A stretch of DNA of 40,415 nt. Origin: a virus. Its lineage: Duplodnaviria > Heunggongvirae > Uroviricota > Caudoviricetes. This document shows, piece by piece, positions 1,200 to 40,415 of this stretch. Within the stretch, counting starts at the first letter, position 1. Each line of letters starts with the position of its first letter. Under the pieces are notes generated by a model. That model saw nothing but the letters and a program-made list of their open reading frames with translations, did not search any database and was not told the DNA's origin. The position numbers and the translations under genes are program-made. The DNA lies in IMG/VR virus record IMGVR_UViG_2551306526_000008, positions 1 through 40,415 of that record. One strand, written 5' to 3'.

Positions 1200-1244
1200 G
1201 GGTAAAAAGTGGATAAAATAATTTTACCCACCGGATTTTTACCC
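1200..1244. promoter_or_regulatory. Cluster of GGGTAAAA/TTTTACCC motifs just upstream of int (candidate Int/Xis arm sites or int promoter)
   Basis: gggtaaaaa at 1200-1208 and its inverse ttttaccc at 1223-1229 and 1237-1244; same motif recurs twice beside attR. Confidence 0.4.
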
Positions 1245-2402
1245 ATGCTCACCGTTAAGCAGATTGAAGCAGCAAAGCCGAAAGAAAAACCATACCGCCT
1301 GCTCGATGGTAATGGCCTATACCTTTATGTCCCTGTATCAGGGAAAAAGGTATGGCAGCTTCGCTACAAGATTGACGGTAAGGAGAAAATCCTGACCGTC
1401 GGAAAATATCCGCTTATGACTTTGCAGGAGGCAAGGGATAAAGCATGGACCGCGAGGAAAGACATCTCGGTTGGCATCGATCCGGTAAAAGCGAAAAAGG
1501 CTTCGTCTAACAACAATTCCTTTAGCGCCATTTACAAGGAATGGTACGAGCACAAGAAGCAAGTATGGTCAGTAGGCTATGCAACTGAACTTGCCAAAAT
1601 GTTTGATGACGACATTTTACCCATCATCGGCGGCCTTGAGATTCAGGATATTGAGCCGATGCAACTGCTGGAAGTAATCCGCAGATTTGAAGATCGCGGT
1701 GCAATGGAGCGAGCCAACAAAGCCCGCAGAAGATGCGGCGAGGTTTTCCGTTACGCTATTGTCACTGGTAGGGCTAAATATAACCCGGCACCTGACCTTG
1801 CTGACGCCATGAAGGGATACCGCAAGAAGAACTTCCCATTTTTACCTGCCGACCAGATCCCGGCATTCAACAAAGCACTTGCAACATTTTCAGGAAGTAT
1901 CGTATCGCTCATTGCTACTAAAATTTTACGCTACACCGCCCTAAGAACGAAAGAGCTTCGTTCCATGCTATGGAAGAACGTCGATTTTGAAAACAGGATT
2001 ATCACCATCGACGCCAGTGTGATGAAAGGACGCAAAATTCATGTGGTCCCGATGTCAGACCAGGTGGTTGAACTTCTCACTACGTTAAGCTCCATCACCA
2101 AACCAGTATCAGAGTTTGTTTTTGCCGGGCGCAACGATAAGAAGAAGCCAATCTGCGAGAATGCGGTACTGCTTGTGATCAAACAAATCGGCTATGAGGG
2201 TCTGGAAAGCGGTCACGGATTCAGGCATGAATTCAGCACGATTATGAACGAGCACGAATGGCCTGCTGACGCTATTGAAGTGCAACTGGCACATGCCAAC
2301 GGCGGATCTGTGCGCGGGATTTACAACCATGCTCAGTATCTCGATAAGCGCAGAGAAATGATGCAGTGGTGGTCGGACTGGATTGATGAAAAGGTGGAGT
2401 GA
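1245..2402 (+). CDS. intS: Tyrosine integrase, IntS (KplE1/CPS-53 type)
   Basis: ORF 1209-2402; start moved to MLTVKQIEAAKPKEKPYRLLDGNG, which matches recalled IntS N-terminus; sits next to tRNA attachment site. Confidence 0.9.
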   Translation: MLTVKQIEAAKPKEKPYRLLDGNGLYLYVPVSGKKVWQLRYKIDGKEKILTVGKYPLMTLQEARDKAWTARKDISVGIDPVKAKKASSNNNSFSAIYKEWYEHKKQVWSVGYATELAKMFDDDILPIIGGLEIQDIEPMQLLEVIRRFEDRGAMERANKARRRCGEVFRYAIVTGRAKYNPAPDLADAMKGYRKKNFPFLPADQIPAFNKALATFSGSIVSLIATKILRYTALRTKELRSMLWKNVDFENRIITIDASVMKGRKIHVVPMSDQVVELLTTLSSITKPVSEFVFAGRNDKKKPICENAVLLVIKQIGYEGLESGHGFRHEFSTIMNEHEWPADAIEVQLAHANGGSVRGIYNHAQYLDKRREMMQWWSDWIDEKVE

Positions 2403-2493: not shown

Positions 2494-4497
2494 TCAAATC
2501 AGCCCATAAATAACATTATGCAAATGAAGAGAGCCTGCTTCACCGGAAACATCAAAATCAATCCTAACTTTGCTTGCTCCAGGAGGAACAATATCTATTA
2601 ATGCGTAGAAATTCCATGTGGAGCCTGGTGGAATTGTAAATGTTGCTTTTCCCTGAACAGAGTTCCCTTCTTTATCAAAAAACTCAATGCCAGCGATTGT
2701 TGTCACTTGATTCTTAGCCCAAAAACCTAACTGGAAATATCGTCCTGGTGAGCAGTCGGAGCACTCCTGATAAAATTTTGCAGATGCTCCTATAGATGGT
2801 ATTGCTACATACAAAGACCTGGAAAACATAATATCATTTGGAACATCAGAATCCGTTCCTGCTGTAACAACACCTGAACCAGTTTGTTGAAGGCTCCAGT
2901 TAGAGTAGTTTAAAAACTGTCCACTGCCATTCGACAATGAGTTTATGTAAGCACTAACAATGTTACCTTTATCCCAATTTGCTGTTATAAAGCCAGCCCT
3001 GGGATAACAACCATAAGACATTACTTTCTTACTGTTCCCACCAATAATTTGACGCGCAGCAGCACCAGCGGCAATCTCTGTTTGCTCATATAGAGGAAGC
3101 GAACAGTTTGTTAGCGAGACGACCGCATCATCATTTGCAACGATTGGTATAGCTGAATATCCAGATGTAGTTAGCAGCGTTGAATCTTTAATACTCAATC
3201 TGGAACTGCCGCCAACCACAAATGCAACAAAACTTTGACTTGGTTGAAATTCAATGTTGCCATTTGCGTAAACAACTGTTGCGTTATCTTCAATAAAAAC
3301 AGTAGAATCAAAATAACCTTCTTTCTTACCTGCTGGCATAGAGCAACAGTTAAAAATAAATTGACCATTTCTCATGGTCAATGGACCTCCATTATCAACA
3401 ACCCAACAATTATTAAATGTCATTACCTCGCCTGAGTTTGATGGAGAATTAAATATAATTGTGTTGTTTAGACATCTTGATATTGTTACTTTGTCAAATA
3501 AAATTCTATATGAATTATCAAGAAACTCAATTCCAGCAGATGATATGAATGAAGAATTACTTATTCTTAACTCTGCTAATTCACCAGTGCCAATACCGCC
3601 AAGTAAAATCTTTTTAGATCCTAGCATCTTAAAAGATATGCCATCTAAAATTGATGTTGCATTTATTTCATCCCTATTATCATAAGAAATATTAGAGTTG
3701 CTTAACCTAATTGCATAATCACCTGATATCCCATTAATCTCAGTTAAAACGCATTTATTCGATCCTCTTAACCCACCCTTCGCGAAATCAATATCAATTA
3801 AACTCGAGAATTCTCCACTACATGGAACAACGCAATCATAACCTAGAGAGTTTATTTTATTAATAAATAATGCAATATCCCCAGCGCCGCTGTAACCAGC
3901 GTCATATACAGAAAACTCAAGGCTTGGGTTTATTCTCTTCCAATTTACACCGTTACCTTCTAAAACCATTACGTTATCAACTGCAATTGACTTGTCTACA
4001 GCTACAACAAACCCACCACCAAGTTCGAGTCCGGATACGTATGACTTTAAATATAATTTATCAGATATCGACATTCCTTGTATATCTTTAAGGGAGTTAG
4101 CGCTCTCTACCATTCCAATGTATTTGTAGCCAATATTACTTGATAGTTTTATAGATAACTGATCAGGATCATACTTCAGCACATTAGGAAAATAAAACTG
4201 CTGCGCACCATATGCATCATAAACAGCCATAGAATGGCCTTGCACAGTTACGAACTTGGCAATCTGTCCGTTATATACAGGGTAACCAGCAGCGTTAATG
4301 ATGATTGGTTGCGAAACAGGAACGTGAGAGCCATCTTCGTTTTCCACATAAACCTGAATCTGGTTTTCAGGATTTACCGGGTCAGTGTCAATTTTACCGA
4401 TATAAATTTTGCCATTGGCTACGGCTTTAAAAGAACGCGCCATAGTGAAGAGTTGCGATGGCATACTTACTACAACATTGGCTGTAATGTCTGTCAT
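2494..4497 (-). CDS. Tailspike protein: P22 gp9-like N-terminal head-binding domain with divergent receptor-binding/depolymerase body
   Basis: 667 aa; N-terminus [46 protein letters not shown]...VLKYDPDQ closely matches recalled P22 gp9 N-terminus; remainder not P22-like. Confidence 0.85.
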
Positions 4498-4675: not shown

Positions 4676-5599
4676 TCAGTAGTTATGTACTGAAGGAGGT
4701 AATTCTTTATTCTTAAGTCTCATCCATGCGGAAAGATTCGTTGGTCCGTCTGGCTCATTGATATCAACATCTCGTGTGTGATTGATTAAAACGTCTCTCG
4801 CCATTCCGATAACATACGAGAATTCATGACCGTAGTCGTAGCATCTGCCGGAATAGTTCGATTGAATTTGTTTTAATGCCGGATACAGTTCGCGGAATAA
4901 TGCCTGTGAGCGGTTGGCATAATCCCATAGCCATACAAGGCTGTTTGCTTCTTTTGCAGAAAGCTCGTTGGTTTTCTTCTCTTGTTTGCCAATGAACTCA
5001 CCTTCAAGCGGAACTCGAGCTGCAAGTGACAGTGCTTCGGTAAACTGCTCCTCACTGATTTCTTTGTATGAACATCCAAAATGGGATTTCAGTGACGACC
5101 ACATGGTGATCATCGCCTTAGCCTGTTTTTCCTTTGGCAGAGACTGACCGCGACTCATGACGAGTTGTTTAATGGCTTCCTGCTGTTCAGTGGTGATTTT
5201 ACCCGGCAACGCCTTTTTAGCTTTGCGTGGGTTAACTACATGACCTTTAGTCCAGTACTCGTAGAGCACATCGTCACACTCTTCCTGATACTGGATTACA
5301 TTGTCGCGGATTTCAGGGCGGACTTTGTTAGGGCTGATGGTTTGCAACCAGCCATTCAGTTTACGTAAAGCAAGGCAAATCATGGTCTGCACACCGCCAA
5401 CTGAAGGTATTGCGATTTCCACAATACCTTTAGCAAATCTTTGTTTTAACTTTGTAAACTGTGAAGCCCAATCCATACCCATTCCCTCAACGATAGGTTT
5501 CATTGGGGTGTACGGCTCACCGTTGTGATTGACAACATAAAGCTCTGCGCCGTGGAATGGTACATTGATAGTAGATACTGCTGTTGCTATACTTTTCAT
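4676..5599 (-). CDS. ant: Antirepressor Ant (P22 immI)
   Basis: ORF 4676-5665; start chosen at [17 protein letters not shown] (AGGA Shine-Dalgarno upstream), leaving a 68-nt arc-ant spacer as in P22; P22 antirepressor-like N-terminal domain; lies beside arc and mnt. Confidence 0.8.
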
Positions 5600-5667
5600 G
5601 TCAATATTTCCTAAGACGATTTGTTGATACCGAAGCCCTGACTGTTCCCGCAGTTGGGGCTTCAACT

Positions 5668-21567: not shown

Positions 21568-21861
21568 ATCAACCTCGTCTAGTTGTTCGTCATAGATTCA
21601 GTGGCTGGCGGTGACGATTCCGCTTTTCGGGAGCTACCCTAGCCACTGTTTTATTCTATCCGATGTCTTTCCATCAGTCCGCCACCACAAAGAATCTTTT
21701 TTGCCATAAGGCTGGAGGTTCATCTTTCAGTGGCTGCCAGTGTTATTTCCCCACTTACTGGCTTGGGTTGTATCGCTGTACTGCCGTAACTGGTTGCCCA
21801 GAATAAATTCCGGTTTCATTATCAAGCCCACCCGTAGATAGGCTTTGTAATGCCTACATGG

Positions 21862-30048: not shown

Positions 30049-30345
30049 TCAGAATTGCATATCAATTTGCTTAAAATCCTCGGTGGCGGCCGGGGATTTT
30101 TTCTTTGTGATTCCATCAAGCGCATACTTAAAAGCCCTGCTAATCGGACTGATGTCTGATGCCATTCCGAAAGCACACAAGACCGAAGCAATAAATCTCC
30201 AGTCCGTTCTGCTTATCTTCGATTCATGACAGCCAATCATCTTTGCCAGACCGCGCTGGGTAAGCGTTGACAGGTTGATGAGTAAATCAGTTTCAGCGCG
30301 ATCAACGTCACGCTGTGATAGTTTGCTGTAACTTGTTTGTTCCAT
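30049..30345 (-). CDS. cII: CII-like transcriptional activator
   Basis: 98 aa; helix-turn-helix TQRGLAKMIGCHESKISR and C-terminal KKSPAATEDFKQIDMQF resembling lambda CII tail KKRPAATERSEQIQMEF. Confidence 0.75.
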   Translation of the reverse strand: MEQTSYSKLSQRDVDRAETDLLINLSTLTQRGLAKMIGCHESKISRTDWRFIASVLCAFGMASDISPISRAFKYALDGITKKKSPAATEDFKQIDMQF

Positions 30346-30464
30346 TTCTTATGATTTCCATAGATAAATAATTTGGTTTTTTATTGTGCACCATTGACAG
30401 TCGTCCATGACCACGCCGGGCACCCGACCGTATACCGGGCCGTTCGGTATAAAAATTTGCTTTA

Positions 30465-30803: not shown

Positions 30804-31535
30804 ATGAAACTAGATACTTTTTCTCAAAGGCTTACATACGCGATGGATCAGGCTGGGTTTACTCAGGCTTCTCTTGGCAATGCTGTTGGCATGTCTCAGC
30901 CAAGCGTCTGGAAACTTACGTCTGGAAAAACACGCAATACGCGCAAACTTTTTGAAATATCAAAAGTGCTTGGAGTTCGTACGGAATGGCTTTCCGATGG
31001 AACTGGGCCAATGCGTGATGAGGGAGTTGAACCTTATAATCCAAAATCTTCTATTCCTCATGAAAGCACGTGGGGATATTTGGACCCATGGGATGGAGGA
31101 ACGCCTTTAAGAGGTGATGAAGTTGAAATTCCTTACCTTAAAGATATTGAGTTTGCATGCGGGGATGGTCGGGTGATTGATGAAGATCACAACGGCTTTA
31201 TGTTGCGCTTCTCCAAATCAACCCTTCGCAGAGTTGGCGCGAACAGTGATGGAAGCGGTGTTGTTTGTTTTCCGGCTCGTGGCAACAGCATGGAGCCAAA
31301 CATTCCTGATGGAACAACAGTTGCTGTTAACACCAACGATAAGAAAATAGTTGACGGAAAGATTTACGCCATTAACGAGAACGGTTGGAAACGCATTAAG
31401 ATTCTCTTTCGATCAGGGCCTGACAAGGTAAGCATTAGAAGCTTTAACTCACTGGAGTACCCACAAGAAGAAAAGAATCTAAGCGATATCGAGATCATCG
31501 GAAGAATCTTCTGGTGGTCTGTAGTTGACTACTAA
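30804..31535 (+). CDS. cI: CI-type prophage repressor (HTH plus S24 LexA-like autopeptidase domain)
   Basis: 243 aa; N-terminal HTH QASLGNAVGMSQPSVWKL; C-terminal GNSMEP...K catalytic dyad motif. Confidence 0.85.
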   Translation: MKLDTFSQRLTYAMDQAGFTQASLGNAVGMSQPSVWKLTSGKTRNTRKLFEISKVLGVRTEWLSDGTGPMRDEGVEPYNPKSSIPHESTWGYLDPWDGGTPLRGDEVEIPYLKDIEFACGDGRVIDEDHNGFMLRFSKSTLRRVGANSDGSGVVCFPARGNSMEPNIPDGTTVAVNTNDKKIVDGKIYAINENGWKRIKILFRSGPDKVSIRSFNSLEYPQEEKNLSDIEIIGRIFWWSVVDY

Positions 31536-31552
31536 CCTCATCACACCACAAC

Positions 31553-31576
31553 AAACCCGCTTTTTGCGGGTTTTTT
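31553..31576 (+). terminator. Intrinsic terminator after cI
   Basis: aaacccgc ttttt gcgggttt hairpin followed by T-run. Confidence 0.7.
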
Positions 31577-31659: not shown

Positions 31660-31700
31660 TTATAACTATAGCTATTTACAGCAATAATAGCTTTGGATAT
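31660..31700. promoter_or_regulatory. Left operator/pL candidate (OL): ATAGCT-type repressor sites
   Basis: tatagctatttacagcaataatagctttggatat repeats the OR half-site motif; located right of cI where early-left transcription should start. Confidence 0.5.
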
Positions 31701-31860
31701 AGTTAAGCCATGTCGAACGGCGCGACATTAAACCATGCGTCGGGAGCGCGGCGGGTTCAGGATGAACGGCAATGCTGCTCATTAGCGAGAAGGCTTTTTT
31801 GCTTTTAGTCACAAAAAGCAAAGCAGCTTTTTGATATAGAAAAAGAAAAAGGAGGCTGAT

Positions 31861-32304
31861 TTGAAGAGTGCTACAGTTTACACGGCAATGAGAGTTAAGC
31901 AATATGGCGGCGTACCTTCGGTAGAGGTAAGGTGTGATGATAAAAGAACCAAAGTTGTTACTGATTGCCTTCTGCTTTTTAAAAGCATAGATGAGGTAAT
32001 TTTTATTGGCGCTGAAAATCTTCACCCTTTGATAAAAGCAGAGATGAAGCAATGTGCAATCGATGCATTGGGAGTTGGGCAAGGCAAGTCTCAGATCGAA
32101 GCAAAGCAAATGCTTACAGAGCTTGAAAGCAGCAGACGTAGACAAGCAAGCAGGGCAAGACAATTTCACGATGCGATCGCAGGATGGAGCAGAGAGCTTA
32201 TGTCTTTAAATGTAGACATACAGAGAGGAATTGATATTCCAACAATAAGGTCAAGAATAGGTACGATCGCAGAGAACATGGAAAAGCTAAATCCAAAGAA
32301 ATAA
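31861..32304 (+). CDS. Hypothetical first early-left protein (possible antitermination factor by position)
   Basis: 147-aa ORF with TTG start preceded by GGAGG; internal Arg-rich segment SSRRRQASRARQFHDAIAGW; start codon uncertain. Confidence 0.45.
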   Translation: MKSATVYTAMRVKQYGGVPSVEVRCDDKRTKVVTDCLLLFKSIDEVIFIGAENLHPLIKAEMKQCAIDALGVGQGKSQIEAKQMLTELESSRRRQASRARQFHDAIAGWSRELMSLNVDIQRGIDIPTIRSRIGTIAENMEKLNPKK

Positions 32305-32328
32305 TAACCCGCTAAGGCGGGTTTTTTA
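32305..32328 (+). terminator. Intrinsic terminator
   Basis: aacccgc taag gcgggtt hairpin followed by T6. Confidence 0.7.
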
Positions 32329-32439: not shown

Positions 32440-32691
32440 ATGGAATTTCATGAAAGTGCGATTTATGATTTTCGCGCTAACGCAAATTCAGTAAAACCAC
32501 AGCCAATTGCAGTTCTTTTTAAAACAATGGGTGCGTGGGCTGTTTTATGCTTCGCCTCTGATGACACTGACGCAAGAATGGCAATAGGTCAAGAGATGGA
32601 GATGGACCCGACAAACGATGAATTCATAATTTATGGCGCTCCATCTAATTACTTACTTGATACCTGCAACATTTACAACAAGGCTGCCTGA
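32440..32691 (+). CDS. Hypothetical protein
   Basis: 83-aa ORF in early-left operon; no recognised family. Confidence 0.45.
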   Translation: MEFHESAIYDFRANANSVKPQPIAVLFKTMGAWAVLCFASDDTDARMAIGQEMEMDPTNDEFIIYGAPSNYLLDTCNIYNKAA

Positions 32692-32827
32692 CGGTGGCCT
32701 TTATTTTTGGCATAAACAACAGAATAAACACTGCACTGTGTATTCATTCCAACGAGTGAATACACGGAGCAATGTCGCTCGTAACTAAACAGGAGCCGAC
32801 TTGTTCTGATTATTGGAAATCTTCTTT

Positions 32828-32854
32828 GCCCTCCGATGTGAGGGCAATTTTTTT
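32828..32854 (+). terminator. Intrinsic terminator immediately upstream of coiled-coil gene
   Basis: gccctc cgatgt gagggc hairpin followed by aattttttt. Confidence 0.65.
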
Positions 32855-35614: not shown

Positions 35615-36163
35615 ATGAATCACTTGATGGTTGACCTTGAAACAATGGGCAACGGGCCATACGCGCCAGTTATTTCTATTGGGTCGGTATTCTTTGACCC
35701 GAATACCGGAGAAACAGGAGAAGAGTTCTCGGTAAATATCTCGCTTGAATCATCAATGCGATATCGAGCGCGTCCTGACGCTTCAACGATTTTATGGTGG
35801 CTGGAACAGAGTGAAGAAGCCAGAAAATCGCTAACCAGCAACACTCAGGAGCTTTCAACGGCTCTTTCATGGTTATCTGAATTCATCATAAAGAACGCCA
35901 ACCACAAACTCGTTCAGGTTTGGGGGAATGGAGCATCATTTGACTGCGTTATTCTCCGCAACAGTTATTCGCTGACAGGGCAGCCAGTTCCGTGGCAGTG
36001 GTGGAATGACCGCGACGTAAGAACAATCGTCGAACTTGGGAAGGTAATAGGATTCGATCCTAAGCGAGATATGCCATTCAAAGGAACTCGCCACAACGCG
36101 CTTGATGATGCCATCCACCAAGCCAAATACGTTTCAGCGATCTGGAAAAAGTTAGCTAAATAA
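35615..36163 (+). CDS. DEDDh-family 3'-5' exonuclease
   Basis: 182 aa; Exo I motif MVDLETMG and Exo III motif HNALDDAIH. Confidence 0.7.
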   Translation: MNHLMVDLETMGNGPYAPVISIGSVFFDPNTGETGEEFSVNISLESSMRYRARPDASTILWWLEQSEEARKSLTSNTQELSTALSWLSEFIIKNANHKLVQVWGNGASFDCVILRNSYSLTGQPVPWQWWNDRDVRTIVELGKVIGFDPKRDMPFKGTRHNALDDAIHQAKYVSAIWKKLAK

Positions 36164-36179
36164 TCAACAGGAGAAAACC

Positions 36180-36473
36180 ATGCCAGCGCCTCTGTATGGT
36201 GCGGATGACCCGCGCCGCTGTTCCGGCAATTCCGTATCGGAGGTGCTGGATAAATTCAGAAAAAACTACGATCGGATAATGTCGCTACCGCAGGAAACGA
36301 AAGAGGAAAAGGAATTTCGTCACTGTATATGGCTCGCAGAGAAAGAAGAACGCGAGCGAATTTACCAGACATCAATCCGACCATTCCGCAAAGCCACATA
36401 TACCCACTTCCCTGAAATTGACCCGCGCCTGCGTAATTACCGCTCACGCTATGGCGCTATCAGTAATGACTGA
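36180..36473 (+). CDS. Hypothetical protein
   Basis: 97-aa ORF in co-directional early operon. Confidence 0.5.
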   Translation: MPAPLYGADDPRRCSGNSVSEVLDKFRKNYDRIMSLPQETKEEKEFRHCIWLAEKEERERIYQTSIRPFRKATYTHFPEIDPRLRNYRSRYGAISND

Positions 36474-36483
36474 GGAATTAACA

Positions 36484-36774
36484 ATGAAAACAATGAAGCT
36501 GAACATCGACCTCGGAAAATACGTTATTACCGGAACCAAACACGACCTGATTCTTAGCGAAAGAGGAATTATCAAAGAAGGTGAGAATGCAGGGAAAGAA
36601 ACACTAAGCCGTATCGGTTATTACAGCAAGTTTGAGCATCTGGTTAAAGAGTTATGTAACCGTGAAATCCTGTTATCTCAGGCGCAGACGCTACAGGATA
36701 TTCAGCAGCATATCGAAACTTTAGGTATGTCACTTAGCATGGCTATTGACCAGTTCGTGGAGAGTAAATCATGA
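36484..36774 (+). CDS. Hypothetical protein
   Basis: ORF 36418-36774 trimmed to ATG at 36484 after GAGGAA. Confidence 0.5.
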
Positions 36775-36938
36775 GAGGACTTGCATACAATCCCGGCATT
36801 CTTCCGGCAGAAATGATTATTCGCCAACGCGTAAAGCCAATGCCATCGAGAGAGGAATTGCTTAAGAGAAATTCTTTTCCATCAGTTAATCAAAACAAAT
36901 ATCTGAATGCAATGTGGCGCAAAGGAGGCAACCAGTGA
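36771..36938 (+). CDS. Small hypothetical protein (55 aa)
   Basis: Untracked ORF coupled on both sides by ATGA and GTGA overlaps. Confidence 0.35.
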
Positions 36939-37609
36939 GCGAAATTAATTACCAGGTACTGCGTGAGGCGGCAGAGAAAGCAACGTGGGGAGACTGGGAC
37001 TCATATAAACCACACCGTGGCGCACGTGGTTATGAGGTCCGACTAAGTAGTCAGGCCATTGCGCAACACGTTCTGAAAAACAACGCTGAATTTATTGCTG
37101 CCTTTAATCCAAAGATTGCATTGGCACTACTGGATGAACGGGAAAGAAACCAGCAATACATCAAATCACGCGACCAGGAGAACGAGGATATTGCGCTTAC
37201 GGTTGGGAGGCTGCGCGTTGAGCTGGAAGGCAAAGACAGCAAAATAGCCAATCTTACCGCCGAACGCGATGCTCTTCGTGAAGGTGAGATGGGCGACGCT
37301 AGGCATAGCAACACACGGGCCGCAGCTGATATCTACTTCCAACTGGTCGAGGAATGCGAAATTCCTGCTGGCGGATCTCTGGTCGAGTACGTTGACGATA
37401 TGCGCGAGAAGCTGGAAGCCGCAGAGAAGCGCATTGCTGAGCTGGAGTTGCGGGAGGTTGTGCTTCCGCAATGCTATAGCATGTTGCATCGCGTCGATTT
37501 TGACGAGCCTTACCACACTGAAATGGTTTACAGGCAGCATCAGGTTCTTGAGGCACTGCACAACGCTGGAATAAACGTCACCGAAGCAGGTAAAGGAGAG
37601 GCATCATGA
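36935..37609 (+). CDS. Ead/Ea22-like family protein
   Basis: ORF 36914-37609 trimmed to GTG at 36935 after AGGAGG; [12 protein letters not shown] motif and coiled-coil middle typical of Ead/Ea22-like proteins. Confidence 0.65.
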
Positions 37610-38181
37610 GCACTATCACAAGAGAATGGCTGCAGCAGGCTATCAACGATTATGAAAGCGTTCGTGATGAGCTTCCTTTCGGGCTTGATGATTACCAGGG
37701 GAATATCCTGTCTGCCCTGCGTATCGCACTGGCATCGCTGGAAGCAGAGCCGGTGGCGTGGAAGGTAACATTCACGAAAATTGACCGTGAATATAACACG
37801 TTCACTGGTATGTATTCTGACAAAGCAGAAGTCGAACGGTGGGTGCGGCTGCATAAAGCATGTGATTTTCGGGCAGATATAACACCGCTTTATACCGCCA
37901 AGCCAGTGCCGGTAACTCCGGATGGTTGGATAAGCTGTAGTGATCGAATGCCTGTAATTGGCGAGCTAAATTGGAGAACTAGTTTTCCTTTACTGGTTGC
38001 GTGTGAGATCGGCGTTATATCAGCTTATTACGGCTTTGTGAGCGTTAATGGGGATAGGCATTATGGCTTTATGGAGAGTCTTAAATACGGAGACGATAGC
38101 GGCAACCATCCTCAAACTAATGAATATGGTCTGATTAGCAATGTAACCCACTGGATGCCGCTACCAGAGCCTCCACTTTGA
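37606..38181 (+). CDS. DUF551-like hypothetical protein
   Basis: 191 aa; C-terminal domain ending HWMPLPEPP as recalled for DUF551 proteins. Confidence 0.55.
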   Translation: MSTITREWLQQAINDYESVRDELPFGLDDYQGNILSALRIALASLEAEPVAWKVTFTKIDREYNTFTGMYSDKAEVERWVRLHKACDFRADITPLYTAKPVPVTPDGWISCSDRMPVIGELNWRTSFPLLVACEIGVISAYYGFVSVNGDRHYGFMESLKYGDDSGNHPQTNEYGLISNVTHWMPLPEPPL

Positions 38182-38277
38182 AAGCGAAGCTTATACATAT
38201 CTTTTACATCAGCAATCTATTGTTAATCTCCAATCAATGTTACGTTGTCATCTCACTCATGCTTTGGAGGTAGTGAT

Positions 38278-38457
38278 ATGTCTTGTCCAAAATGCGGTTC
38301 TGGAAATATTGCAAAAGAAAAAACAATGCGTGGATGGTCTGGAGATTATGTGTGCTGCGATTGCGGATACAACGACTCTAAAGACGCATTTGGAGGGCGT
38401 GGTAAAAACGAGTTTGTTAAAATTAATAAAGAAAGCGAAGGCAACGAAAAAAGCTAA
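38278..38457 (+). CDS. Small zinc-ribbon protein
   Basis: ORF 38245-38457 trimmed to ATG at 38278 after GGAGG; CPKCGSG ... CCDCGY. Confidence 0.5.
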   Translation: MSCPKCGSGNIAKEKTMRGWSGDYVCCDCGYNDSKDAFGGRGKNEFVKINKESEGNEKS

Positions 38458-38521
38458 TTTATTTATTCATATATGAAAACAATGTAACCAATATTCGAAT
38501 TGAAGAACTGAAAGAACACCA

Positions 38522-38544
38522 AGCCGCCTGATGGCGGTTTTTTA
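38522..38544 (+). terminator. Intrinsic terminator
   Basis: agccgcc tgat ggcggtt hairpin followed by T6. Confidence 0.65.
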
Positions 38545-38557
38545 TTGGAGACAAGAA

Positions 38558-38902
38558 ATGTCAGATTTGGCTATGAAGGTTTTGAAATGGCAATCGACTG
38601 GCGATGTCGGAATCAGTAGCGCAACTCTTGCCTCAATCGCATGTGGACTGAAAAAGAATATCTATGGTCATCACTTCGGTGCTCCACATGACGCAGCCGA
38701 TTTCCGACGATGCGTTGCACTTGTTGAGCAGATTCCAGAAATCAGGGATTCATTCGACAAGGTTGCAAAGCGCGTTCCGGCATTCAAAGGAATCCTCAAC
38801 GAATGGGATTCCCTCGTTGCTCTGTTGAAGTCTGAAATGAAGATACACGGAAACAAAGCACCAGAGACTTACAGAAGAATCAGCGAGCTACGCAAGGACT
38901 AA
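38558..38902 (+). CDS. Hypothetical protein in terminator-insulated unit at prophage right end
   Basis: ORF 38531-38902 trimmed to ATG at 38558; 114 aa; no recognised family. Confidence 0.5.
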   Translation: MSDLAMKVLKWQSTGDVGISSATLASIACGLKKNIYGHHFGAPHDAADFRRCVALVEQIPEIRDSFDKVAKRVPAFKGILNEWDSLVALLKSEMKIHGNKAPETYRRISELRKD

Positions 38903-38946
38903 CCCGCCTCACACTCGATGAGGCATTTTCATTTATCAAGATATCC

Positions 38947-38975
38947 AGACCTACCATCGCCGCATCAATGCGGTT
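38947..38975 (+). terminator. Intrinsic terminator upstream of torI
   Basis: ccgca tcaa tgcgg hairpin followed by T7; a second hairpin gcctca...tgaggc at about 38905-38930. Confidence 0.6.
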
Positions 38976-38980
38976 TTTTT

Positions 38981-38996
38981 ATTGCCTGATTTGCAG
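38981..38996. repeat. 16-nt copy of argW T-arm segment (ttgcaggttcgattcc)
   Basis: Exact match to tRNA positions 1054-1069; lies 300 bp left of attR core. Confidence 0.6.
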
Positions 38997-39025
38997 GTTC
39001 GATTCCCTATTCGGAGATAGCACTC

Positions 39026-39226
39026 ATGCAACACGAACTACAACCTGATTCACTGGTTGATTTGAAATTCATCATGGCCGATACTGGCTTCGGTAAAACC
39101 TTCATCTACGACCGGATTAAGTCCGGCGACCTGCCAAAAGCCAAAGTTATCCACGGACGAGCAAGATGGTTATATCGTGACCATTGTGAGTTCAAAAATA
39201 AGCTCTTAAGTCGCGCCAATGGGTAA
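39026..39226 (+). CDS. torI: Excisionase / recombination directionality factor TorI
   Basis: 66 aa; MQHELQPDSLVDLKFIMADTGFGKTFIYDRIKSGDLPKAKVIHGRARWLYRDHCEFKNKLLSRANG matches recalled E. coli TorI. Confidence 0.85.
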   Translation: MQHELQPDSLVDLKFIMADTGFGKTFIYDRIKSGDLPKAKVIHGRARWLYRDHCEFKNKLLSRANG

Positions 39227-39299
39227 AATAGCGGGTAAAATATTTTTCACATATAAAAAATACCATTCCAATCAATCCCCTGCCGCTTCAAGTAGATGT

Positions 39300-39314
39300 C
39301 TGCAGGGGACACCA
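39300..39314. repeat. attR core: 15-bp direct repeat of argW 3' end (pawZ-like pseudo-tRNA fragment)
   Basis: ctgcaggggacacca identical to 1069-1083; GGGTAAAA motifs at 39221-39228 and 39233-39240 just upstream. Confidence 0.85.
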
Positions 39315-39755
39315 GATACCCTTCAAACGAAATCTACCTTCACCCCGTAAAAGATGGGTTTGGCAGCACACTTGCCTTATATCTACTCATTTTTACTGCA
39401 ACAGGTTGAAATCTCAGCACTGTCAGAAAGCGCTGATGACTAAACAGCCCTGGGCCGGGCGATGTAACCATCACACAGAATCCTGATAGCGAAATATGGC
39501 GTGACTCGATACTTCACTCCGCAATGCATTCCTTGATGAATTCGCAGGACCGTGATACACGGGACAGGTCACTGAATGACGACAATGTCCTGGAAATCAG
39601 CGAACCGCGCATCTGAAGTACATTTGAGCGACTGTACCAGAACATGAATGAGGCGTTTGGATTAGGCGATTATTAGCAGGGCTAAGCATTTTACTATTAT
39701 TATTTTCCGGTTGAGGGATATAGAGCTATCGACAACAACCGGAAAAAGTTTACGT

Positions 39756-40415
39756 CTATATTGCTGAAGGTACAGGCGTTTCCATAACTATTTGCTCGCG
39801 TTTTTTACTCAAGAAGAAAATGCCAAATAGCAACATCAGGCAGACAATACCCGAAATTGCGAAGAAAACTGTCTGGTAGCCTGCGTGGTCAAAGAGTATC
39901 CCAGTCGGCGTTGAAAGCAGCACAATCCCAAGCGAACTGGCAATTTGAAAACCAATCAGAAAGATCGTCGACGACAGGCGCTTATCAAAATTTGCCACGC
40001 TGTATTTGAAGACGGATATGACACAAAGTGGAACCTCAATAGCATGTAACAGCTTCACTAATGAAATAATCCAGGGGTTAACGAACAGCGCGCAGGAAAG
40101 GATACGCAACGCCATAATCACAACACCGATAAGTAATGCATTTTTTGGCCCTACCCGATTCACAAAGAAAGGAATAATCGCCATGCATAGCGCTTCGAGT
40201 ACCACCTGGAATGAGTTGAGATAACCATACAGGCGCGTTCCTACATCGTGTGATTCGAATAAACCTGCATAAAAGACAGGAAAAAGTTGTTGATCAAAAA
40301 TGTTATAGAAAGACCACGTCCCCACAATAAATATGACGAAAACCCAGAAGTTTCGATCCTTGAAAACTGCGATAAAATCCTCTTTTTTACCCCTCCCGCA
40401 TCCGCCGCTACGCAC
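39756..40415 (-). CDS. LacY-family oligosaccharide:H+ symporter, C-terminal 219 codons (N-terminus beyond window); possibly sucrose permease CscB
   Basis: Polytopic hydrophobic ORF running off the window end; csc genes are known to lie beside argW in some E. coli, but identity is from recall only. Confidence 0.6.
   Translation of the reverse strand: MRSGGCGRGKKEDFIAVFKDRNFWVFVIFIVGTWSFYNIFDQQLFPVFYAGLFESHDVGTRLYGYLNSFQVVLEALCMAIIPFFVNRVGPKNALLIGVVIMALRILSCALFVNPWIISLVKLLHAIEVPLCVISVFKYSVANFDKRLSSTIFLIGFQIASSLGIVLLSTPTGILFDHAGYQTVFFAISGIVCLMLLFGIFFLSKKREQIVMETPVPSAI

Follow-up and report, generated by a model that had tools for sequence, protein, structure and literature searches.

The window analysed here is the whole of the 40,415-nucleotide viral (Caudoviricetes) record IMGVR_UViG_2551306526_000008, which holds a complete ~38 kb prophage in argW, described as intact and Sf6/HK620-like, and the subject of this work is the short unit at the right end of that prophage in which a gene for a 114-amino-acid (aa) protein stands between terminator-like hairpins. 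A first-pass annotation of the window had placed an open reading frame (ORF) for this protein at 38558–38902, an intrinsic terminator upstream of it at 38522–38544 and two terminators downstream, with the excisionase gene torI and attR immediately beyond, and this arrangement was borne out, all of its features lying at the given positions or a few bases off (Table 1). The ORF was retained together with a GGAG ribosome-binding site (RBS), the upstream terminator (T1) was located as described, and torI and the attR core do lie just beyond. The first of the two downstream terminators was recovered as a hairpin with a weak T-rich tail (T2), and the second (T3) is also present, its earlier placement at 38947–38975 being slightly too far left. 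An alternative ATG at 38531, giving a 123-aa protein, was rejected as it lies inside the T1 hairpin and has no RBS, and homologues begin with MSDLAMK.

Table 1. Features of the 114-aa gene unit, its neighbours, and the early leftward operon (positions in the window)
Feature	Position	Strand	Details
putR antiterminator RNA, rightward early operon, between cro and cII	~30386–30442	−	Near-identical to annotated HK022/O276 putR
pL-like early leftward promoter	31675–31703	+	TTTACA-17-TATAGT; 10/12 consensus match; aligns with annotated HK022 pL −35/−10 positions in phage O276
putL antiterminator RNA, HK022 type	~31718–31780	+	Coordinates mapped from O276 misc_RNA annotation
Three predicted intrinsic terminators early in pL operon	32306–32323, 32680–32701, 32826–32847	+	Terminator scan
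EaG zinc-ribbon protein, 59 aa	38278–38457	+	92% identical to P22 EaG; RefSeq 'Eag protein'; PHROG 2945, E = 7e-31
Non-coding orf55 3′-end relic	38484–38531	+	48 nt, 15 codons; translates to VTNIRIEELKEHQAA and stop; runs into T1 hairpin
T1, predicted intrinsic terminator	38523–38543	+	GCCGCC-TGAT-GGCGG 38523–38537, then six T 38538–38543; 5 GC pairs
Ribosome-binding site GGAG	38547–38550	+	Read from sequence, 7 nt before ATG of 114-aa gene
114-aa gene, PHROG 1229	38558–38902	+	ATG 38558, TAA 38900–38902
T2 hairpin, weak T-rich tail, 3′ end of cassette	38906–38934	+	GCCTCA-CACTCGA-TGAGGC 38906–38924, 7-nt loop, tail ATTTTCATTT
T3, predicted intrinsic terminator, diverged T1-type copy, directly upstream of torI	38959–38980	+	GCCGCA-TCAA-TGCGGT 38959–38974; seven T 38974–38980; 4 GC pairs
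pI-like region, TTGC-N5-TTGC, abutting T3	38982–39010	+	Homologous to Sf6 feature 'pI; possible integrase expression promoter'
torI, excisionase (recombination directionality factor)	39026–39226	+	Named torI in RefSeq relatives; near-identical to K-12 torI
attR core	39300–39314		15-bp exact repeat CTGCAGGGGACACCA of argW 3′ end, 1069–1083

T1 and T3 are both strong predicted Rho-independent terminators, each consisting of a GC-rich hairpin directly followed by a U-tract, and they share the form CCGCn-loop-nGCGG followed by six or seven T and ATTG, with a loop-closing pair that is C-G in T1 and A-U in T3. The minimum free energy of the fold is −13.4 kcal/mol (z = −2.8) for T1 and −9.1 kcal/mol (z = −4.1) for T2, which begins 4 nt past the stop codon of the 114-aa gene; T3 begins 57 nt past it. 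The T-tail of T2 is interrupted and weak, and in most relatives it is weaker still, CTGTTCATTTCTC, with the stem kept in the K-12 KplE1 element and in all 114-aa cassettes that were read through the stop codon, and with a loop that varies. All three hairpins are conserved across many phages, and T3 was likewise found before a lambda-type xis in three loci. A terminator scan of 36500–40415 returned 12 terminator-like sites compared to 3.6 ± 2.2 in shuffled sequences, and an Rfam search of 36000–40415 gave no family at E ≤ 1. In E. coli K-12 MG1655, comparison of the defective KplE1 prophage (5230–5310 of that record) with 38903–39025 of the window showed an intact T2, a degenerate T3 (GCCGTCATAGAGCGTATTTTT), and no 114-aa gene. 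In the pI-like region that abuts T3, the spacing between the two TTGC motifs is one base off that of the lambda cII box, TTGC-N6-TTGC.

Promoter signals around the 114-aa gene were examined by consensus scanning. The gap between the T-run of T1 and the ATG is 14 nt and is occupied by the ribosome-binding site. A scan of the + strand from 36500 to 39600 returned no promoter-like sites, and a relaxed scan for sigma-70-like sites over 38380–38575 gave a best match of 8/12, no better than the median of the best scores reached by all equally sized windows of the sequence, with both 8/12 candidates sitting upstream of the T1 hairpin. The 114-aa gene has no promoter of its own, the signal being not above chance. 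The base composition of the unit shows no step either, as the G+C fraction of the ORF is 0.46–0.47 compared to 0.38–0.50 in the neighbouring windows.

From ~31.7 kb to torI all genes lie on the + strand, and the operon that holds the 114-aa gene starts at a pL-like promoter just 3′ of the cI repressor gene (30804–31535, +) and the cI terminator (31553–31573), with cro and cII on the opposite strand. The order is cI, pL, kil, a Rad52/Erf-like annealing protein, ssb, exonuclease, abc2, DUF5405, Ea22, DUF551, EaG, the 114-aa ORF, and torI. The 114-aa gene is, therefore, the penultimate gene of the pL operon, at the distal end, in the region named exo-xis in lambda. A CII-like protein is encoded at 30049–30345 (−).

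Downstream of this promoter, the segment 31704–31841 is 96.4% identical to putL of HK022, HK75, and O276, annotated as 'antiterminator RNA' in the HK75 and O276 records. The element is near-identical to the annotated one and its stem pairing is kept, the sole difference from HK022 in stem I being a paired U-A to A-U swap. With a putR element on the opposite strand, put-type antitermination would serve both early operons, as judged from homology. [quoted passage not shown] Three predicted terminators lie early in the pL operon, that at 32826–32847 matching the position annotated 'tL2A' in Sf6, and since they stand upstream of the kil, erf-like, ssb, and abc2 genes, the delayed-early genes need read-through. 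By its resemblance to characterized put elements, the pL operon probably carries an antitermination device able to pass internal terminators. No N-like protein was recognised in the prophage. Next after putL, at the position of HK022 nun, stands a gene (31861–32304, +) for a 147-aa protein that falls in PHROG 13686 and matches nothing in Pfam; it is followed by its own bidirectional-looking terminator (32306–32323) and may encode a Nun-like exclusion factor or be some other gene that is expressed in the lysogen. Finding HK022-type putL and putR in an Sf6/HK620-like podovirus prophage, with no N gene recognised there, is an observation in its own right.

We place a probability of about 0.75 on the reading that the 114-aa unit is an accessory gene of the put-antiterminated pL operon and that its terminators gate torI and do not insulate cargo. 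The gene would be transcribed when cI repression of pL is lifted, and solely then. The nascent putL RNA would render RNA polymerase resistant to terminators, allowing it to run ~7 kb past six of them (32306, 32680, 32826, T1, T2, and T3), and this read-through would express the recombination genes, the accessory genes, the 114-aa gene, and lastly torI. Polymerase without the put modification would be halted by T1–T3 ahead of torI. In the integration module of this kind (argW/torI), the integrase gene intS is constitutively active at a low level, and production of TorI alone suffices for excision (PMC2951348), so that a polymerase reaching torI without an induction signal would cure the prophage, and this step must be leak-proof. 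Gating of torI is, we infer, most plausibly what the stacked terminators do. Menouni and colleagues (PNAS 2013) reportedly found that termination upstream of torI controls the maintenance of KplE1, which we treat as a lead and not as evidence.

Several points weigh against this reading. Consensus scanning could miss a weak or non-sigma-70 promoter upstream of the 114-aa gene, and the termination efficiency of T1–T3, like put read-through in this prophage, is deduced from homology; read-through in vivo and the role of the 114-aa protein are what we infer. The U-tract of T2 is poor in most relatives, and T2 may be an RNA-stabilising or processing hairpin instead of a terminator. That T1 is so nearly identical from phage to phage may be due to recent recombination and not to selection for function. 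In contexts of the SfX/mEp043 type, T3 is absent and T2 alone stands before xis, so a terminator immediately before the excisionase gene is not universal.

The first-pass annotation had taken the unit for an insulated single gene, possibly carrying lysogenic-conversion or defence cargo. Put as a rival explanation, the gene would be a moron-like cassette, expressed in the lysogen independently of pL and isolated by its terminators. This view draws on the presence of a single accessory gene with a hairpin directly past its stop codon, located at the prophage end and separating two elements, T1 and xis, that lie side by side in lambda and Sf6, as well as on the frequency of the gene in E. coli (963 of 5426 genomes), its unassigned function, and its orphan fold. 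It is countered by the absence of an above-chance promoter-like site and the 14-nt T1-to-ATG gap, by a G+C content equal to that of the flanks, by the lack of any PADLOC match, by the occurrence of homologues within long early operons and in phages without an integrase near the gene, and by T1 itself, which is an old element of the pL operon and not specific to the cassette. By promoter and composition, the unit is not a moron. The gene is, moreover, co-directional with the put-antiterminated pL operon. The first-pass interpretation was supported in part, for a mobile accessory cassette between terminators; insulated expression found no support, nor did defence, given the PADLOC result, and we consider a moron-like cassette improbable.

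T1 is an ancient element of the lambdoid phages. Some 200 phage records, those of lambda, HK630, P22, Sf6, and many Stx phages among them, carry the sequence at 38490–38547 at 96–100% identity, and T1 is annotated as 'terminator' in P22virB-3 and as 'rho-independent terminator' in HK140. [quoted passage not shown] Running into the hairpin is the 3′ end of orf55, whose translation is the exact C-terminus of the lambda/HK630 Orf55 protein. This relic is non-coding here because EaG ends at 38457, and relic and T1 occur together likewise in lambda, P22, and Sf6. Judging by these matches, the T1 block is the orf55 relic with its terminator.

What follows T1 differs among phages. In lambda it directly borders the cII box of pI, and xis; in Sf6 it borders an annotated pI and a torI homologue. 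In P22 the run of EaG, spacer, T1, RBS, and ATGTCAG equals that of the window but for one base in the RBS–ATG spacer, and continues into the unrelated EaC. A census of 120 IMG/VR loci with an exact T1 match gave lambda pI/xis after T1 in 53, a torI-type leader in 39, the 114-aa ORF in 22, P22 eaC in one, and other sequences in four, with one locus having too little sequence past T1 to classify. T1 is thus followed directly by xis in 92 of the 120 loci, as in lambda and Sf6. The 114-aa gene is absent at the same position in Sf6, K-12 KplE1, lambda, and P22, and present in mEp043, in Stx phages, and in the 22 T1 loci; it is a dispensable, variably present delayed-early accessory gene of the pL operon, of the lambda exo-xis kind.

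The unit formed by T1, the ORF, and T2 was found upstream of at least five excisionase types. Upstream of torI-type and lambda-type xis it is followed by T3, upstream of the SfX/mEp043-type xis T3 is absent, and upstream of an AlpA-type xis a different hairpin and T-run take its place; two further leaders were also seen. Mosaic joints fall exactly at T1, T2, and T3, and in Sf6 the boundary sequence bsq2 annotated by Casjens starts right after T1. With terminator hairpins at its borders, the 114-aa unit is a discrete and mobile cassette of one gene, in a variable slot just upstream of the excisionase gene, and it stands before many different excisionases because short conserved sequences act as recombination joints.

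These same joints raise the alternative that the hairpins are mere recombination scars ('boundary sequences') without a regulatory role and that the gene is simply transcribed with its operon. The 96–100% identity of T1 across very different phages, together with the dead orf55 fragment it carries, the start of bsq2 in Sf6, and the exact placement of the mosaic joints would all fit such scars. The hairpins have, however, kept the form of terminators. T1 and T3 are canonical GC-rich hairpins with six to seven U, the compensatory pair change between them keeps the stem, the stem of T2 is likewise kept while its loop varies, and T1 was predicted as a terminator by other annotators and by ARNold. 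The roles of scar and terminator are also compatible with one another, and a purely passive role of the hairpins seems to us distinctly improbable.

The closest counterparts of the put-antiterminated accessory gene are found in other lambdoid early operons. In the lambda exo-xis region, ea8.5 and orf55 are associated with the predicted terminators t3/t4 and t5 (Bloch et al. 2014, PMC4195576). The 114-aa gene has the same genome place, between ea22 and xis in the distal pL operon, and the same orientation, and like those genes it belongs to a set of small non-essential early genes between predicted intrinsic terminators, T1 being t5 of lambda with the orf55 tail. The 114-aa protein is, however, unrelated to Ea8.5 (a homeodomain/zinc finger protein) and to Orf55 (alpha/beta), and antitermination in lambda is by N and nut, whereas here it would be by put RNA. 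The eaG-terminator-eaC-xis arrangement of P22 is similar in that EaG is 92% identical and one gene stands between T1 and xis, with the upstream spacer, T1, the RBS, and the first seven bases of the ORF common to both. The occupant in P22 differs, EaC being a 211-aa protein with no similarity to the 114-aa protein, and P22 lacks T2 and T3. Antitermination in P22 is by the N-like gp24.

In mEp043 (gp29) and in Stx phages, where the gene is listed as a 'hypothetical protein' next to xis, the same protein is found with T1 upstream and T2 downstream, but the excisionase and integrase that follow are of other types (SfX-like, AlpA-like), and mEp043 lacks T3. The morons of HK97/HK022-type phages, which consist of promoter, gene, and terminator, resemble the unit in being single extra genes that separate elements otherwise neighbouring in related phages, and in the terminator-like hairpin after the gene. 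The 114-aa gene departs from them in having no promoter of its own and no compositional difference, and in lying inside an antiterminated early operon. The likeness to HK022 is in the put system, with putL just downstream of pL, putR between cro and cII, and at least 96% identity; the carrier here, an Sf6/HK620-like podovirus prophage, differs from HK022 in its immunity region, and the gene after putL is not nun.

The 114-aa protein matches PHROG 1229 (E = 7.1e-52, residues 1–114 on profile positions 1–113 of 116), a family that carries no functional annotation. The first-pass annotation had recognised no family for the protein, and it indeed belongs to no curated one; neither the sequence alone nor a profile built from 45 sequences matched anything in Pfam, NCBIfam, PADLOC, or the PDB sequences, and none of the defence families of PADLOC-DB v2 matched at E ≤ 1. 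Homology and structure-based searches had been proposed as a check on the protein, and the former were productive, yielding PHROG 1229 and mEp043 gp29, while the latter gave nothing; the AlphaFold2 model, confident at a predicted local distance difference test (pLDDT) score of 95.8, is all-alpha, and no PDB structure resembles its fold. In sequence the protein does not differ from mEp043 gp29 (100% identity), which is recorded as similar to HK022 p30, and the Stx2a_F349 and Stx1a phages encode versions 98–99% identical to it. About 18% of complete E. coli genomes carry the gene, with as many as 4 copies, and its product is labelled hypothetical in every case. Searching the literature by accession and by family identifier brought up nothing on it.

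Some candidate assignments were rejected. The label 'lipoprotein' in the Stx2a_F349 record (3001–3345) is not supported, as the protein lacks a signal peptide and Cys29 varies across the family. P22 EaC (BLASTP E = 2.1) and Sf6 gp19 were both tested and rejected as homologues. E. coli fusions of the family with PF04447, ERF, Kil, and Ea22, in which the matching part is 90–100% identical, were read as recombination or frameshift chimeras. When 69 family members, and 47 longer ones with N-terminal extensions, were compared with Pfam, only scattered sub-threshold matches and no informative domain fusion came up, and the extensions contained no recognised domain, a PHROG scan giving unannotated families alone.

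The family itself is large and widespread. An exhaustive HMMER search gave 1862 cluster representatives at E ≤ 1e-3 (clusters at 50% identity, so that at least this number of clusters exists), and tblastn against a phage collection gave matches in 150 Vibrio, 34 Salmonella, 30 Escherichia, and 6 Arthrobacter records, as well as in other phages. A Burkholderia prophage also encodes a homologue, and the family spans enterobacterial, Vibrio, Burkholderia, and actinobacterial phages. In an alignment of 69 sequences, W11, G18, S20, S21, P43, D45, D48, R51, C52, and W83 are invariant. Isoelectric points vary between 4.5 and 9.7, a spread that speaks against DNA binding or DNA mimicry as a conserved role.

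The neighbourhood of the gene in a wider set of genomes bears on its link to excision. Among eight diverse contigs, the gene is the last before an xis-like gene or int in two (Burkholderia and Citrobacter), and in the other six it lies within long co-directional arrays of small early genes, with helicase, primase, exonuclease, methylase, or nucleotidase genes as neighbours and no integrase within 4 kb. In PY54 no integrase or excisionase is annotated within 3.5 kb of the homologue, the homologues of Vibrio phages have no nearby integrase, and that of an Arthrobacter phage lies ~2 kb and six genes from int. We consider it very improbable, in view of this, that the 114-aa protein is an accessory factor of site-specific recombination that modulates excision or integration together with Xis/TorI. 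Such a role would suit its position in enteric phages, where excisionase genes of at least five unrelated types directly follow it, and its place at the end of the row before xis-like or int genes in the Burkholderia and Citrobacter prophages, but the adjacency to xis in enteric phages is accounted for by the shared T1 joint, the six contigs and the PY54, Vibrio, and Arthrobacter phages do not share it, and a family with so wide a range of isoelectric points has no conserved DNA-binding charge. The family is one of routine early-region accessory proteins, tied to xis in the enteric phages by position. The first-pass annotation had named clear homology to a routine phage early protein as evidence that would speak against its cargo proposal, and the identical mEp043 gp29 and the early-region homologues in PY54, Vibrio, and Arthrobacter phages provide just such homology.

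Our best guess is that the 114-aa protein, which is small, soluble, and all-alpha, is an effector of early lytic growth that acts on a host or defence component via its invariant polar cluster (S20, S21, D45, D48, R51, and C52). A more far-reaching proposal, which we hold to be possible yet on the whole doubtful, is that the protein founds a large phage family, so far without a name, whose all-alpha fold is new and in which a Ser-Ser/Asp-x-x-Asp-x-x-Arg-Cys ligand-binding or catalytic site would serve in early infection to neutralise a host function that is widely conserved, or an immune signal, thereby forming a new anti-defence/host-takeover class, with the T1-type terminator doubling as a portable recombination joint that creates a cargo slot before excisionase genes.

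Of the remaining neighbours, the small zinc-ribbon ORF directly upstream of the unit, previously listed as uncharacterised, has a named homologue in P22 EaG. Its matches to the Lar families are below cut-off (PF14354, E = 1e-4, 22.8 bits compared to 28.6; TIGR03655, 12.2 compared to 39.6). The tRNA-Arg(CCT) gene argW lies at 1009–1083 and the tyrosine integrase gene at the left end, at 1209–2402 (+), so that int and torI are at opposite ends, a split arrangement described for KplE1, HK620, and Sf6 (PMC2951348). The closest phages are Sf6/HK620-like podoviruses, with which 33–45% of the segment 30000–40415 is common at 96–98% identity. Beyond attR lies a host sucrose permease gene (cscB-like; 39756–40415, −), named 'oligosaccharide MFS transporter' in RefSeq relatives, which reads towards attR and torI, antisense to torI, and whose 3′ end contains just one weak terminator-like site (39854–39836). 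Elsewhere in the prophage, Rfam matched the sar RNA, the P22 antisense regulator of ant, at 5601–5667 (+; 73.4 bits compared to a gathering score of 43), which indicates a P22-type immI region, and the int-alpA RNA at 21587–21649 (−; 42 bits compared to 35.8), mid-prophage and far from the integrase.

The 114-aa gene is, thus, of a known kind, an exo-xis accessory gene in an antiterminated pL operon, and the open interest lies in its orphan-fold protein family. For the reading of prophage ends, bracketing by terminators need not mean an insulated cargo gene, as the distal pL operon of lambdoid phages is studded with terminators that antiterminated polymerase ignores, and it is promoter evidence that separates a moron from an early gene. 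Terminators stacked before torI and overridden by put-modified polymerase alone would be a plausible safeguard of lysogen stability. A family that is this frequent in E. coli, Stx phages included, and that combines an orphan fold with invariant polar residues outside Pfam and NCBIfam, is a reasonable target for curation and for anti-defence and host-takeover screens.

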